This document shows positions 7,440 to 49,249 of a stretch of 64,000 bases of DNA, piece after piece. Made by a program: the position numbers and the translations under genes. This stretch comes from Akkermansiaceae bacterium. GTDB taxonomy: Bacteria > Verrucomicrobiota > Verrucomicrobiia > Verrucomicrobiales > Akkermansiaceae. Within the stretch, counting starts at the first letter, position 1, and each line of letters begins with the position of its first letter. The stretch covers positions 470-64,469 of the forward strand of contig CAIKHZ010000040.1 of the NCBI GenBank assembly GCA_903827375.1, in the 5' to 3' direction. The notes under the pieces are model-generated. The model had not been told where the DNA came from, did no database searches, and saw only the letters and a program-made list of their open reading frames with translations.

Positions 7440-10400
7440 TCAGCGCATGAGCAGGGCGCGGCGCACCGAGATTTCCGGGTAATCGGCGGCGAGACGGTGC
7501 AACTCCGTTAGGCCAGCGCTGTCGGCGAGTTTGCCGGCGGCGATGGCGGCGGCGTAACGGGTATCGGTCGCATTTTCTAGGTTGGTGATGGTTTTGAGGA
7601 GGACCGGCCGTGCCCGCCCGTCACCGAGGCGCCCCAGGGCCCAAGCCACCTCGGCCCGCCAGCATGGGGTCAGGTCGTTGTGCAAGAACAACACGCCGGG
7701 GCCGAGGGGATCGGGGCGGCCACTGGCGGCTTCTGGCGGGGATTTCTCCAACAGTTCGACCAAGGTTTCCACCGAGTGGGGGTCGCCCAGATTGCCGAGT
7801 GTGCGAGCCAGGAAGAAAGCGACCCAATGGCGGGTTGGCAATTGGTTGACCACAGGAATACCGGTATCAAACACCCGCCGGATGTCCACGGGCTGGTTCC
7901 AATAGCGCAGCAATGCCGCCCGCAAGCGAGGCTCGTAAGCGCGATCGCGACACACAAGGGAAAGGATTTGTGCGGCGCGGTTGAGAGGGTCAGGGGTGCC
8001 GGCCCAAGCGCCGTGGACCGTTGCAATGGCCTTGGCGACGTCCGGTTGTTGGGTGGCCTGGGCATCGCCAAGGATGGCGAGGCAGGTATCGATCACGGCG
8101 TTGGTTTGGCCACTGCGGCGGATGACCCGGCCCACCAGGGTTTCGTAATCATCGTTGCCAGGCAAGAGAGCCCGGTCCGGATCGGTCGGCACCGAGCGAA
8201 TGAGTGCGGGCACAATAGTGACCGTGTTTGTGGTGCCCAGTGCGTCGAGCGCTTCAATGATATAGGCATGGACCGGCGACGAGTGGCAGGCGATCAGGGC
8301 ATCGTGATCCCCATACCAACGGGTGTAATCCGGGTAAGGCGGCAATTTGGCAAAGACATCGATCAAGGTCGCCACCGCCTCCGGCGTGCCAATGTGCCCC
8401 AGCGCCTCCACCGCCGCCTCAGCTAAAAACAAATTCGCGGTTTTCGGGTCCAAGTTCCGGCGAAGCGTCTCGGCAAGCAGCGGCACCGCTTCCACGTCAA
8501 CCAGCCAGCCAAGGGCACGCACTGCTGCTTGCAGCGTGCGCGGATTCACGTCAGCGGGCGAATTGAAGCGTGCGCTGTCGCCGCCGTGGCTGTTGTGCCA
8601 TTGTGGCAACGGATTATTCTCCCGTTCGTGCGTCACATACTCACGCAGGGCGCGGCAGCCAGCGGCAGCGCCGACGTGCCCCAGCGCCACTGCCGCCTTG
8701 CGGACGTCATCGCGATCCTTGCCCGCCAGGCGTTTGACCAATCCGGCTTCTAGCAAATCCCAAGGATTCGCCTGCAGCCAAGCTTGCCACGCATCGGCCT
8801 GACAAGTGCCCGCTTGCAACGAAGCAGGCGGCGGTGTCCCGGTTAGGTTTTCCAGAGCGATTGCCGCAGCGCTGGCGACCGGCGGGTCTGGGTCCCGCAA
8901 GGTCTCTATCAAGGGTGGGCAAGACTCGCGAGTGCCGCAAGCGGCGAGGGCGATGGCGGCGGCGACGCGCACTTCCCGGGGTTGGCCGTGGAGGCATTTT
9001 GCCAGGGCCGGGGCGGCACTGCGATTGCGGAACAGGCCGAGGCGCTGGATGGCACCAAGCTTGAGGGCGGCATCGGGCTGCTGCAAGCGGGCGATGAGGG
9101 AGGCGACTTCCTGATGGCCGGTGGCCGAGGGATCGGAGGTGTCGCTGTGGCGGTTGATCCCTGCGACTTGCCGGTAGCGATCGAACTGCAACTCCATCAT
9201 GCCAGTGACCGCCGCGTTGTTGCCGCGGAAAATTAGCGGGTCGCCCGTGCCTAGCAACGCCAGAGGCTTGACCCGCAACGCCTGCACGCTTTGCAAGGGC
9301 ACCGACGGGGCCAACTGCCGGGGTTGATGGCAGCCGACGCAACTGCGGGATTCTCCGGGGCGGACAAAGATCCAGGACATTTCATTGAGTTCGGAACGGC
9401 CTTCGCCATCGACCGCCTGAAAGGCAATCGGGGTGTCGGCGGGCACCTCCACGGCGAACGAACCGTCCGCCGCCAGCGGCACAGTACCCAACTCAGTGAC
9501 TTCACTCCCGGCGTGTACGATATACGAATGGGACGAGCGCAGGGTCAGGCCCTTGCTAGCGAGTACCCGGACGGCACGCACATGCGGCCAACCCGCTGTG
9601 GTATTCTTGGTGAAGCGCGCGTTTTGGCAAACCAAGACACCGGTGGGATGAGGAGCGGCGGCGACGAGCGGGTCCACATTGTCAGGCAGGAGCGGCGGGC
9701 GTTGGCGGGCACCCAGGAACACCGGCGAGTGCAACGGCGCATCCGGCGAATCAAAGATGACCACAGGCTTGGCATCAGCCTTGCTTGGATCGACGACCGC
9801 CAGGCGGTGATAACTCGTCGCCGGAACGCTCGAACCCGCCACACGGCCCCGCTTGCCAAATTTCGCCCGGCCCGGCAGACTGCACAACAGACGCCCGTCC
9901 GGCATCGCCGCCACATCACCGGCTGCCACTTGCAGGTGGAGCAACTCCCCGGTTCCCGATCCAGGGCGGCCCACCGCAATCCCAGATTCCGTTAGAAAGG
10001 CAACCCGTCCATCGGCCATCGGAGCCGGGCTGCCGCAGTTGAAGGCACGCAGGCGCTCGCCGTACTCCGGACCCAGATCCAAACCAAACTCAGTGACCCC
10101 CGCAGTGCCGTCCGGATGGATCGCGTGCAACAATGTCTCAACCTTGCCACGACCAAAAAAATTGTCAGAGCGAATAAACAGAATGCGGCCGTCGGCGAGC
10201 ACCTCGGGCTCATTGTCGAAGACGATGGTGTTCGTAAGGGCGGAGATGTTGCGGCCGTCGGCTTTCATGGTGAACAACGCCCGTGACGGCGGATTGTGAT
10301 ACTCCTCAAAGGTGCCGATACGCGTTGAGGTAAACACGATTCTGCCATCGGGCAATTCGCAGGGGTCAATGTCGTGAAACGGTCCGTCAGTTAGTTTTTG

Positions 10401-11399
10401 TGGCACACCGCCCGCGGCACTCAGTTTATAGATATGGAAAAACCCCTCGCCGGCGGGGGCCATGGATAGATAGATCCAACGACCGTCGAACGAGACGGAA
10501 GGCGAGCCAAGCGCCCCGCGGCCGGCGTCGAGCAGCGGTAGCGGCGCCGTTCCCGGCTTGGCGGGTTGCAAGAGATAGAGTTTGTGGCCGACCTTCATCG
10601 GAGAGGGCAGGTCGTGCTCGGGAAACGCCCGGGAATCGCGCGGATTAAACACGGTCACCGACAGGCTGTCGTAGCTGTTGCCGGTGCCTCCCGTCGGCCG
10701 GTAAAGACTGCAATCATCCCCCACAAAGGCCACCGCCTCAGGCCAAACAAAGTCGGCCGGAGGCGCGGGTTCACCACCTCGCTCCCGGTTGCCGGCAGGC
10801 TCCAGTGGCGCATGAAACGCAAACTTGCCCCAAGGTGGCGCTCCGACGGCCCCCAAGCTGATAGACACCGCCCACGCTTGGTCATTGAGCGCTGGCTGCT
10901 GCCAGTTAGGCGGCTCCTCAGTGGCACATTTCCAGGTTGGGTTTGTTAGCAGCTCGGCAGTTCCACCGTCCATCAACTCGACGACGAGCCGCACCAGCAG
11001 ACCGGCTGGTCCCGGTGCGGTGTTGACCGCCTCGATGGCGATGACATTGTGGCCGGCCGCCAGCAGAGGGGCGACGTCTAGCCGCTTGGGCCGGTTCCAG
11101 GCATTGGGATCCGCTTCGCTCTCGACGACATACTGGCCATTGAGAAAGACGGTGTAGAGGTTGTCCGCTGTGATGAGCAACTGCGCAGAACGAATCTGCG
11201 CCTTCTCAGACACGGTCACGCTGCTGCGAAACCATGCCGAGCCAGCTGGCTGATTCAAGGCCGTGGCCCCTGCCGGAGGTGGGGACCAAATCCACTCCGC
11301 AGCACCAAAATCCACCACCTCACCCCGCGCTCCGGCCCCCAAGGCAAGCGATATCAAAACTGATGTTAGGAGAATCGATGATCGTATGTAGCCACGCAT
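7440..11399 (-). CDS. Large exported protein: jelly-roll (rhamnosidase-N-like) domain + beta-propeller + HzsA-middle-like domain with CxxCH + HEAT repeats
   Basis: Signal peptide from ATG 11399. AEWIW..ITADNLYTVFLNG; propeller repeats (PSVSFDG, DIDPCELPDGRIVFTSTR); GSFAVEVPADTPIAFQAVDGEG..PGESRSCVGCH; repeated A-A-x-ALG HEAT motifs. Confidence 0.75.
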   Translation of the reverse strand: MRGYIRSSILLTSVLISLALGAGARGEVVDFGAAEWIWSPPPAGATALNQPAGSAWFRSSVTVSEKAQIRSAQLLITADNLYTVFLNGQYVVESEADPNAWNRPKRLDVAPLLAAGHNVIAIEAVNTAPGPAGLLVRLVVELMDGGTAELLTNPTWKCATEEPPNWQQPALNDQAWAVSISLGAVGAPPWGKFAFHAPLEPAGNRERGGEPAPPADFVWPEAVAFVGDDCSLYRPTGGTGNSYDSLSVTVFNPRDSRAFPEHDLPSPMKVGHKLYLLQPAKPGTAPLPLLDAGRGALGSPSVSFDGRWIYLSMAPAGEGFFHIYKLSAAGGVPQKLTDGPFHDIDPCELPDGRIVFTSTRIGTFEEYHNPPSRALFTMKADGRNISALTNTIVFDNEPEVLADGRILFIRSDNFFGRGKVETLLHAIHPDGTAGVTEFGLDLGPEYGERLRAFNCGSPAPMADGRVAFLTESGIAVGRPGSGTGELLHLQVAAGDVAAMPDGRLLCSLPGRAKFGKRGRVAGSSVPATSYHRLAVVDPSKADAKPVVIFDSPDAPLHSPVFLGARQRPPLLPDNVDPLVAAAPHPTGVLVCQNARFTKNTTAGWPHVRAVRVLASKGLTLRSSHSYIVHAGSEVTELGTVPLAADGSFAVEVPADTPIAFQAVDGEGRSELNEMSWIFVRPGESRSCVGCHQPRQLAPSVPLQSVQALRVKPLALLGTGDPLIFRGNNAAVTGMMELQFDRYRQVAGINRHSDTSDPSATGHQEVASLIARLQQPDAALKLGAIQRLGLFRNRSAAPALAKCLHGQPREVRVAAAIALAACGTRESCPPLIETLRDPDPPVASAAAIALENLTGTPPPASLQAGTCQADAWQAWLQANPWDLLEAGLVKRLAGKDRDDVRKAAVALGHVGAAAGCRALREYVTHERENNPLPQWHNSHGGDSARFNSPADVNPRTLQAAVRALGWLVDVEAVPLLAETLRRNLDPKTANLFLAEAAVEALGHIGTPEAVATLIDVFAKLPPYPDYTRWYGDHDALIACHSSPVHAYIIEALDALGTTNTVTIVPALIRSVPTDPDRALLPGNDDYETLVGRVIRRSGQTNAVIDTCLAILGDAQATQQPDVAKAIATVHGAWAGTPDPLNRAAQILSLVCRDRAYEPRLRAALLRYWNQPVDIRRVFDTGIPVVNQLPTRHWVAFFLARTLGNLGDPHSVETLVELLEKSPPEAASGRPDPLGPGVLFLHNDLTPCWRAEVAWALGRLGDGRARPVLLKTITNLENATDTRYAAAIAAGKLADSAGLTELHRLAADYPEISVRRALLMR

Positions 11400-47262: not shown

Positions 47263-47300
47263 ATAAAAAAGCCGTCTCCCGATCGAACGGGAGACGGCTT
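47263..47300 (-). terminator. Intrinsic terminator of the H1-like gene
   Basis: On the minus strand AAGCCGTCTCCCG-TTCGAT-CGGGAGACGGC followed by TTTTTT. Confidence 0.8.
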
Positions 47301-47332: not shown

Positions 47333-48028
47333 CTAGATCTTACCAATTGTCAGCTTCAACTTGGCGATTTGCTTCTCCAACTTGGCAACCTGATTGGTGA
47401 TGGCGATGACGCCCTTGGCGCTCAGACCACCGGTGGCGGGTGCCTTCACCTTGGCCGCTTTCGCTGGCGCTGCGGCTTTTGGTGCCTTGGCGGCTTTAGG
47501 AGCCTTGGGAGCTTTAGCGGCTTTGGGACCCTTGGTAGCCACGCCAGCTTTTTTGACCCAGCCACTGATGGTCAGCGGAGAAACCTTATACTTGGCGACG
47601 GCGGCACTCAAGCCACCACGGCCCCTGGCAGTGTTAACTTCCAGCACATACGCAACGACTTCCTGCTTCTGCGCATCGGTGTAGCGCTTGCCTTGGGGAG
47701 CGTCTTGCTTGACTGCTGCCTTGGCTGCTGCCTTGGCTGCCTTGGCTGCCTTGGCGACCTTGGAAACTTTCACGATCTTCACGATCTTGGGTGCCTTGGC
47801 AGGAGCAGGAGCGGCGGCCTTAGCGGCTTTGGCTGCCTTGGGTTCCGCACCGGCCTTGAGCCAACCTGCGACCGTAAGCACCGAGATGCCATATTTTCTT
47901 GCGGCTTCGGCTTGACCGCCGCGGCCTTTGTCAGCATTCCACTTGTTAGCGAAATTGATGACTTCTTGTTTCTGGGCGTCAGTATATCGTATGCCCTTGG
48001 TAGTAGTTTTCTTTGGAATTGCACTCAT
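47333..48028 (-). CDS. Lys/Ala-rich histone-H1-like protein with two HTH repeats and a C-terminal coiled coil
   Basis: Two copies of RYTDAQKQEV..RGG..AA..KY..S.LT..GW.K separated and followed by (P)KAAKA repeats; ends QVAKLEKQIAKLKL. Confidence 0.75.
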   Translation of the reverse strand: MSAIPKKTTTKGIRYTDAQKQEVINFANKWNADKGRGGQAEAARKYGISVLTVAGWLKAGAEPKAAKAAKAAAPAPAKAPKIVKIVKVSKVAKAAKAAKAAAKAAVKQDAPQGKRYTDAQKQEVVAYVLEVNTARGRGGLSAAVAKYKVSPLTISGWVKKAGVATKGPKAAKAPKAPKAAKAPKAAAPAKAAKVKAPATGGLSAKGVIAITNQVAKLEKQIAKLKLTIGKI

Positions 48029-48124
48029 GTCGCGGGGAACATATCAGGGCAATTAAGTTTCACAAGAGAAAAGTTACACTTTTTCAAAGTAAATGATAAC
48101 GAGATAAATTCACGAGATAACATG

Positions 48125-49249
48125 CTAATAGCCATTGAGCATGGCAAGCAGAGTTTGTGAATCAGTCATGTTATCGATCCAATGCTTAGCCCCCTGTTTG
48201 ACGTTGGGACGAGTGATAACGCCGCCGAAGCCGATGAACACATCGACGTCGGGCTGGGTTTCCAAATCAGACATACCATCACCGATCATGGCCACGCGCT
48301 GGGGGAAGATGGCTTGGCACCACTCTCGGATGATGAGGTTTTTACCGCCATTGCGGGTGGTAGGATAGCTTTGTGCATAGCCGGCATAGTTGCCAGACGC
48401 ATCGAATTCGAGTGGCACAGCTTCCACATGATCGATGCCAAGATATCGGGCCAATGGAGCGATGAGAGGAGCGAAGCCGCCGGAGAGAATCACAGGCAGC
48501 CAGTCATTCGCCTTGAGTTGCTGGATCAACTCGGGAGCTCCGGGTGTGAGTGTTGCCACATAGTGCGCAGCCACCAGTTCGCACGCAGCCCGGTCCGGAC
48601 GGATGATATCCATGCGGCGGGCAAACACCTCATCGAGGGGCACTTCGCCATTCATGGCGGCATGTGTGAGGGCCACAACTTCGGCATAGACATCGGCACC
48701 CCGCACTCGCGCCAATTCATCAATCCCCTCAATCGCGGAGAGGGTTGAATCGCAATCCAGGAAGATGAGTTTACCTCGGCGTTGGAGCGGTGGATGAATA
48801 TAAACCTCCGCGCCCGGAGGCACCAACTCAAACAACTCAAGCATATCCTCATTACGCAATCGGATGCAACCATGGCTCGCCGGGTGCCCGATGAGATCCT
48901 CGCGATTGGTGCCATGAATATAGATGCAGCGCTGGAGAGTGTTGGCATTTTCCGGGTCCATGCCATCCAAGCGCAGGATCCGGGTGAGTACCAAATCATC
49001 AGTTACCACATCGCAGGGTTGCCAGATGCCGCAGGCCACTCTTGAGCGAAATACCGTGCCCGTGGCTGCACCCGCGCCAAGTTTTTCCAGCACCCGGAAG
49101 CGCCCCAGCGGCGTCCGAAAGGAACCCACAGCAAAGCCCACGCCCTTGGCAGCGGTGGAGACCGGATAGCTGCGCAAGTGCTGCTTCGCCTCGAACACAT
49201 CCAGGCGTTGGTCATCGATGGAAACTTCAAGTGAGATCGACGGATTCAT
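48125..49249 (-). CDS. Fusion of a YkuD L,D-transpeptidase domain and a SerB-like HAD-IB phosphatase
   Basis: N-terminal half: YPVSTA, TPLGRF and IYIHGT..SHGCIRL. C-terminal half: FLDCDSTL..EGIDELA, ILSGG, GGK and IGDGMSDL. One uninterrupted frame. Confidence 0.8.
   Translation of the reverse strand: MNPSISLEVSIDDQRLDVFEAKQHLRSYPVSTAAKGVGFAVGSFRTPLGRFRVLEKLGAGAATGTVFRSRVACGIWQPCDVVTDDLVLTRILRLDGMDPENANTLQRCIYIHGTNREDLIGHPASHGCIRLRNEDMLELFELVPPGAEVYIHPPLQRRGKLIFLDCDSTLSAIEGIDELARVRGADVYAEVVALTHAAMNGEVPLDEVFARRMDIIRPDRAACELVAAHYVATLTPGAPELIQQLKANDWLPVILSGGFAPLIAPLARYLGIDHVEAVPLEFDASGNYAGYAQSYPTTRNGGKNLIIREWCQAIFPQRVAMIGDGMSDLETQPDVDVFIGFGGVITRPNVKQGAKHWIDNMTDSQTLLAMLNGY

Follow-up and report, generated by a model that had tools for sequence, protein, structure and literature searches.

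A syntenic gene for a very basic protein

The window analyzed here, a stretch of 64,000 nucleotides, stems from a lake verrucomicrobium of the family Akkermansiaceae with a genome of 6.1 Mb and a GC content of 58.8%. Its minus strand carries, at 47333..48028 including the stop codon, a gene for a very basic protein of 231 amino acids (pI 10.57, net charge +39) that contains 43 lysine, 58 alanine and 13 proline residues. The reading frame is real, and its translation is exactly the one quoted in the original prediction, which had described the product as a histone-H1-like protein with two helix-turn-helix (HTH) repeats and a zipper. The polypeptide starts with a basic arm (47996..48028, residues 1-11, MSAIPKKTTTK), of which the pattern MSxxxKK is kept in the family. 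It continues with HTH repeat 1 (47855..47995, residues 12-58), linker 1 (47693..47854, residues 59-112), HTH repeat 2 (47552..47692, residues 113-159) and linker 2 (47420..47551, residues 160-203) and ends in an amphipathic helix of about four heptads (47336..47419, residues 204-231), all of these parts being encoded on the minus strand.

An intrinsic terminator on the same strand (47263..47300, or 47269..47300 in a narrower delimitation) follows 33 nt past the stop codon and consists of a 13-bp stem with nine G-C pairs, a 6-nt loop and a T-run. Eight relatives have it at the corresponding position with compensatory changes in the stem, such that the predicted strong terminator is borne out and the gene is a monocistronic unit with a terminator of its own. 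The 96-nt intergenic region upstream of the gene (48029..48124, minus strand) has a GC content of 35% as compared to 58.8% for the genome. Conserved blocks within it comprise TGATAT (48041-48046), CTTGTG (48061-48066) and GTAACTTTT, and in the upstream spacers of relatives the TGATA block precedes the ATG by 12-13 nt. A perfect 6-3-6 palindrome, AAAAGT-TAC-ACTTTT, is located at 48069-48083, adjoins the conserved CTTGT and TGATA blocks, is kept in the closest relatives and may constitute an operator or a promoter element. The spacer as a whole is presumed to hold the promoter and perhaps an operator. A scan of the 96 nt found no canonical sigma-70 promoter, and the original designation as an AT-rich promoter is therefore confirmed only in part, i.e., with regard to base composition and conserved blocks.

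The neighboring genes are a ketoacyl-synthase-like (KAS-like) gene and a fusion of YkuD (L,D-transpeptidase) and HAD/SerB-like domains on the upstream side, the latter being the immediate neighbor (48125-49249, minus strand), and genes for Dak2 and a DeoC-type aldolase downstream. The YkuD-SerB, KAS-like and HTH genes are conserved together across many genera of the Akkermansiaceae. Among the checked genomes of the genus, 12 have kept both the KAS-like and the YkuD-SerB gene, and in all of them a homolog follows directly on the same strand; among 89 loci from genomes and metagenome-assembled genomes YkuD-SerB occupies position -1 in about 68 and the KAS-like gene position -2 in 65. Related loci feature a Kup transporter gene at position -3 as well as NUDIX and GcvP genes downstream on the opposite strand. 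The neighbors of the homologs in Akkermansia differ from those in other genera. Neither the gene nor its two upstream neighbors gave a defense-system match with PADLOC.

Several metagenomic relatives have the HTH protein in one open frame with the upstream YkuD domain (residues 1-155) or with the SerB/HAD domain. These are P0128, P0136, P0146, P0187 and P0209 as well as an open reading frame at locus L019 (G011:C4, 6739-8436). These proteins still contain the usual MSxK start internally and are either true fusions that arose via loss of a stop codon or read-through ORF calls.

Homologs of the 231-residue protein are annotated as 'transposase-like' or 'Transposase IS3/IS911 family', and weak profile matches extend to the N-termini of IS3, IS66, IS481, IS21 and IS630 proteins. 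Both observations would fit an orphaned or decaying remnant of OrfA, left behind by an IS3/IS66-type insertion sequence and devoid of host function, an explanation to which we give next to no credence. The gene occurs as one copy in the 6.1-Mb genome, and beside 47333..48028 there is no orfB or DDE (rve) gene that could serve as transposase partner, the terminator being followed by the Dak2 gene. In addition, the position is syntenic across genera, and hundreds of homologs have retained an intact frame and conserved residues. The genuine IS66 TnpA genes of the genome look different: a genome-wide PF01527 scan misses the gene at 47333..48028, and the only PF01527-type matches are IS66-type TnpA accessory genes (C225:~1327-1698 and C277:~211-603, loci L114 and L115) that are followed by TnpB-like ORFs and do not resemble the 231-codon gene. 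Single copy, absence of orfB, synteny and intact frames effectively refute the remnant explanation; we are dealing with a host-fixed gene and not with an insertion sequence.

Fold and relatives of the HTH repeats

The two direct repeats (residues 12-58 and 113-159) each comprise 47 amino acids, 25 of which are identical (53%). A hidden Markov model of the repeat unit finds one to three copies in 273 homologs, which excludes that the repeats are due to chance. The signature RY..K..N..GRGG..A..K..W, recognition helix included, hardly varies among more than 270 homologs.

Assignment of the repeat as an HTH rests on Pfam and on structure prediction. HTH_28 matches two stretches of the whole protein with 33.1 bits as compared to a gathering cut-off of 25, and an AlphaFold2 model of the full-length protein, derived from a 25-sequence alignment, contains two three-helix bundles with a pLDDT of about 90. 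The helices comprise residues 17-34, 38-46 and 50-61 in repeat 1 and residues 118-135, 139-147 and 151-160 in repeat 2; a model of the domain alone reached a pLDDT of 84 and a pTM of 0.67. Among 37 tested family members, HTH_28 matched all 37, BrkDBD 36 and HTH_Tnp_1 16, while the matches of the latter two models to the 231-residue protein stay under their cut-offs.

When the model of the domain alone was submitted to Foldseek, the top neighbor in the PDB was 2rn7, TnpE from Shigella flexneri, an IS3-type OrfA-like protein (probability 1.00, TMq 0.75, rmsd 2.8 Å over 54 columns). It was followed by homeodomains, CENP-B, DeoR/SorC, Fis and the HTH domains of Mos1 and Mu transposases. All E-values were above 0.09 and none reached 1e-3, as expected for a query of 57 residues, so that the structural assignment identifies the best neighbor and is not statistically significant on its own. 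The full-length model has bipartite HTH proteins as its neighbors, e.g., the DUX4 double homeodomain and Mos1.

Sequence profiles point in the same direction as 2rn7. Positions 2-73 of the NCBIfam IS3 transposase model NF033516 align to residues 120-226 (E 3.5e-5) and thus span HTH and zipper, with a score far under the full-length cut-off, and a match to PHROG_151, annotated as 'transposase', has an E-value of 2e-8. A search of PDB sequences with the family profile returned nothing significant, the top HTH match being the DNA-binding domain of Brinker (E 0.32). The structured domain of the protein belongs to the HTH_28-type clan and resembles IS3 OrfA most closely. The predicted combination of an IS3-OrfA-like HTH with a zipper accordingly holds as a description of the closest resemblance and fails as a statement of membership in the OrfA family.

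Linkers and C-terminal helix

Residues 59-112 and 160-203 together consist of 24% lysine, 41% alanine and 11% proline, in agreement with the lysine/alanine/proline linkers initially noticed, and linker 2 is characterized by tracts of the KAPKAPKAAKAPK type. AlphaFold2 assigns a pLDDT below 50 to both linkers, which are hence predicted to be disordered. On the DNA level, they are made up of short tandem repeats of 9-18 nt, i.e., 9-12 nt in linker 1 and an 18-nt repeat in linker 2. Length and sequence of the linkers vary across the family while the composition is kept.

The C-terminal heptad pattern was likewise found as predicted. In residues 207-231, the a/d positions read V-I-V-L-I-L-I-I, and AlphaFold2 models a helix from residue 204 to 230 with a pLDDT of 70-83. 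At least 75% of the a/d positions are hydrophobic in 82% of 247 family members as compared to 6% after shuffling. The helix is presumed to act as a coiled-coil pairing element.

A strict filter for windows rich in lysine, alanine and proline is passed by just two of the genome's proteins with a DNA-binding domain, the 231-residue protein and a 282-residue protein encoded outside the window (C99:18979-19827, plus strand); a third ORF passing the filter has no such domain. The 282-residue protein combines a BlaI/Penicillinase_R winged helix (PF03965, 82 bits, residues 8-120) with a tail of about 160 residues of the AKKAAPAKK type, and its layout is closer to that of histone H1 than is the layout of the 231-residue protein. 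No BlaR1-like sensor gene adjoins it, and the upstream region is very AT-rich.

Distribution and repeat number in the family

A word-indexed search yielded 280 homologs, annotated as hypothetical or 'transposase-like', and all named ones stem from Verrucomicrobiota, Akkermansiaceae or Luteolibacter. An exhaustive search returned 388 clusters at E <=1e-3. In a sample covering the phylum, the family is present in 19 of 401 genomes, 17 of which belong to the Akkermansiaceae. Within that family, 153 of 198 high-quality genomes and 15 of 18 genera have it, as do 30 of 31 genomes of the genus to which the window belongs. As a rule, an Akkermansiaceae genome contains one copy, with up to four to six in the largest genomes. 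The proposed relevance to condensed nucleoids in the PVC group is not supported: a family this nearly confined to the Akkermansiaceae says nothing general on PVC nucleoids. Its designation as undescribed, on the other hand, is correct insofar as we found no account of the family in the literature; searches for nucleoid-associated proteins of Verrucomicrobia, for ACD03971, for Tn-seq essentiality and for locus tags Amuc_0124-0129 gave nothing either.

According to the repeat-unit model, 119 of the 273 homologs have one repeat, 151 have two and three have three. The median pI is 10.4 in both the one- and the two-repeat class and 9.8 in the three proteins with three repeats. One and the same syntenic slot is occupied by a 110-residue one-repeat form in some genomes and by a two-repeat form in others. 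The one-repeat proteins align to repeat 2, tail and coiled coil, and repeats 1 and 2 carry position-specific signatures that are common to different proteins. Taken together, this points to a single N-terminal duplication in an ancestor of the type HTH-linker-coiled coil and indicates that the two-repeat form is derived and that the ancestor had one HTH.

The complete Akkermansia genome of 2,664,102 bp is presumably that of the type strain of A. muciniphila. The A. muciniphila homolog, ACD03971.1, comprises 126 residues, is annotated as 'Transposase IS3/IS911 family protein' and has a single HTH that a short basic linker joins to a coiled coil. It lacks a lysine/alanine/proline tract, and H1-like tails are therefore not a property of the whole family. 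In at least three of four Akkermansia genomes, the homolog is located directly upstream of a parC-like gene for topoisomerase IV subunit A; at locus L107 the 126-residue one-repeat homolog (8030-8410) and the parC-like gene (8411-10669) have the same orientation. An operon of the two was considered and rejected, since the two genes are set apart by a strong hairpin with a T-run, with parC beginning about 165 nt downstream. A 90% cluster in which the 126-residue protein is mixed with ParC sequences looks like a database artefact.

Possible functions

We propose, at a probability of roughly 45%, that the 231-residue protein is a host-fixed, lineage-specific and polycationic architectural DNA binder of low specificity that was built from a transposase-type HTH module. 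Charge, tails and pairing helix make a nucleoid-associated role plausible. The extreme positive charge together with about 100 residues of H1/AlgP-like linker was counted in favor of this role, as were the variation in repeat number at a fixed locus and the conserved pairing helix, which would bring four HTHs into each dimer. Counted against it were the presence of a canonical HU (92 residues, separate gene on contig C339), the homologs without tails in Akkermansia and the codon adaptation of the gene. With ribosomal-protein and EF-Tu genes as reference set, its CAI of 0.558 corresponds to the 70th percentile, unlike that of a top-abundance protein (98th for HU and GroEL, 92nd-93rd for RpoB/C in the same genome), with codon adaptation being no more than a proxy for abundance. 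Shine-Dalgarno strength is uninformative on expression because the ribosomal-protein genes of this organism also lack such sequences. In the ribosomal-protein clusters on contigs C129 and C349, the 25 nt before the starts of ribosomal-protein, EF-Tu and HU genes are C-rich, purine-poor and almost devoid of Shine-Dalgarno sequences; judged from these upstream regions, translation initiation in this organism evidently is independent of them.

The source module would have been an IS3 OrfA-like HTH of the HTH_28/HTH_Tnp_1 superfamily, present in an ancestor of about 110-140 residues in which a basic linker connected a single HTH to a C-terminal coiled coil and which thus matched an IS3 OrfA in size and layout. 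In part of the genus, the unit of HTH plus linker would then have been duplicated once, and the linkers would subsequently have expanded to histone-H1/AlgP-like lysine/alanine/proline tracts. In the protein as it is today, the C-terminal helices may pair two chains to a dimer with four HTH domains. Each HTH would dock in the major groove, the basic N-terminal arm and the GRGG loop being placed near the backbone or the minor groove, and phosphate charge could be neutralised by the flexible cationic linkers, which amount to about 100 residues in each chain. Binding of high affinity and low specificity would be the outcome, and distant DNA segments could be bridged or condensed by an architectural or nucleoid-associated protein acting beside canonical HU. 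DNA binding, dimerisation, bridging and compaction are all steps that we infer from the architecture. A more far-reaching version of this scenario, in which an OrfA with HTH and zipper was domesticated at the base of the Akkermansiaceae to give rise to a new class of chromatin proteins, and in which duplication and linker growth in one genus then created a tetravalent H1-like bridger, is offered tentatively.

The main rival to a nucleoid-associated role is that of a sequence-specific transcription factor, possibly an autoregulatory one, whose tandem HTHs read a bipartite operator. The near-invariance of HTH signature and recognition helix in more than 270 homologs is equally compatible with recognition of a specific site and with general binding. 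A regulator would also be consistent with the moderate, regulator-like and HU-unlike codon adaptation, with a copy number of usually one per genome and with the conserved 6-3-6 palindrome and the other blocks in the gene's own upstream region. Nevertheless, we regard it as less likely than an architectural role. Both the net charge (+39) and the H1-like linkers of about 100 residues greatly exceed what is usual for specific regulators, a repeat number that changes from one to three at the same locus agrees poorly with a fixed operator geometry, and there is no conserved linked target gene, given that the neighbors in Akkermansia differ from those in other genera. In favor of a regulator, the full-length model is similar to the DUX4 double homeodomain and Mos1; the tandem HTHs would then act along the lines of paired, CENP-B, Mos1 and double-homeodomain proteins, with the coiled coil for dimerisation and the cationic linkers only boosting affinity or sliding.

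A polyanion other than chromosomal DNA, e.g., polyphosphate granules, RNA or ribosomes, could be the main ligand, and the HTHs would then serve as a tether or interaction module. RGG-type motifs are RNA-binding, and the invariant GRGG loop of the family recalls them. In addition, the lysine/alanine/proline tracts resemble those of the H1-like AlgP of Pseudomonas, which is reported to organize polyphosphate granules (PMC9239181). Such a function appears improbable in view of the conserved structured parts, which are classical DNA-binding HTH folds, and in view of the short tails of A. muciniphila and many other one-repeat homologs, which make the tails secondary.

Most of what is known on nucleoid-associated proteins stems from a few model phyla, and we know of none in the Verrucomicrobiota that has been characterized beyond HU homologs. 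If the 231-residue protein is an architectural binder, it would clearly exemplify how the DNA-binding module of a transposase was recruited for chromosome organisation and, at the same time, represent an independent bacterial invention of H1-like lysine/alanine/proline tracts on a new fold. If the domestication scenario is true, a lineage-specific family of nucleoid-associated proteins would emerge whose origin can be traced to a mobile element and that has a homolog in the gut symbiont A. muciniphila. As a minimum outcome, the annotation is corrected, as the gene is not a mobile element, and the family is delimited, as it is not a general PVC feature. The family is near-core in the Akkermansiaceae; its annotation as 'transposase' or 'hypothetical' is mistaken, and one of its members belongs to A. 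muciniphila, a species under medical study.

Comparison with known DNA-binding proteins

OrfA/TnpE-like proteins of the IS3 family (HTH_Tnp_1, 2rn7, 2jn6) share with the 231-residue protein the three-helix HTH that is followed by a short leucine-zipper-like coiled coil, and the one-repeat family members equal them in size (about 110-130 residues). In contrast to orfA, the gene at 47333..48028 has neither an orfB/DDE partner nor a frameshift site nor terminal repeats; it is a single-copy, syntenic gene without signs of mobility, its HTH is duplicated, and its product contains long lysine/alanine/proline linkers. In line with these differences, the scores stay below the cut-offs of the relevant models, with 17.0 vs. 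24.1 bits for PF01527 and 23.2 vs. 160 for NF033516.

Tracts of the PAKK/KAAK/KPAA type are present in mycobacterial HupB/MDP1, HupS from Streptomyces, chlamydial Hc1/Hc2 and AlgP from Pseudomonas, where they are likewise part of a nucleic-acid-binding protein, variable in length and rich in tandem repeats. For HupB, the tail is reported as indispensable (PMC5676037). The 231-residue protein differs from the tailed proteins of the HupB type by a transposase-type HTH in place of the HU fold, and profile searches found no match to Bac_DNA_binding, the HU/IHF domain. Nor does it consist of a tail only; its tracts are internal linkers, and a C-terminal coiled coil is present in addition.

Eukaryotic histone H1 follows the same logic, insofar as a small helical DNA-binding domain is combined with disordered lysine/alanine/proline-rich regions of similar composition. 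The term histone-H1-like is thus adequate for the tails and inappropriate for the globular part. No match to Pfam Linker_histone was obtained for the protein even at E-values up to 10, and the domains modeled by AlphaFold2 are three-helix bundles without a wing. Two HTHs and a coiled coil take the place of the winged-helix GH1/GH5 domain of linker histones H1/H5, and the proteins are not homologous.

H-NS, Lsr2 and MvaT resemble the 231-residue protein in their bridging-type layout of oligomerisation helix, flexible linker and small DNA-binding domain. The order is reversed in the latter, with the binding domains at the N-terminus and the coiled coil at the C-terminus; its folds bear no relation to theirs, and there is no family match. 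By analogy, the 231-residue protein would work most like HupB/HupS, Hc1/Hc2 and AlgP while its layout is like that of H-NS, and it is a member of none of these groups. What is new is the arrangement of a known fold and a known type of tail in a near-core, lineage-specific and uncharacterised protein family.
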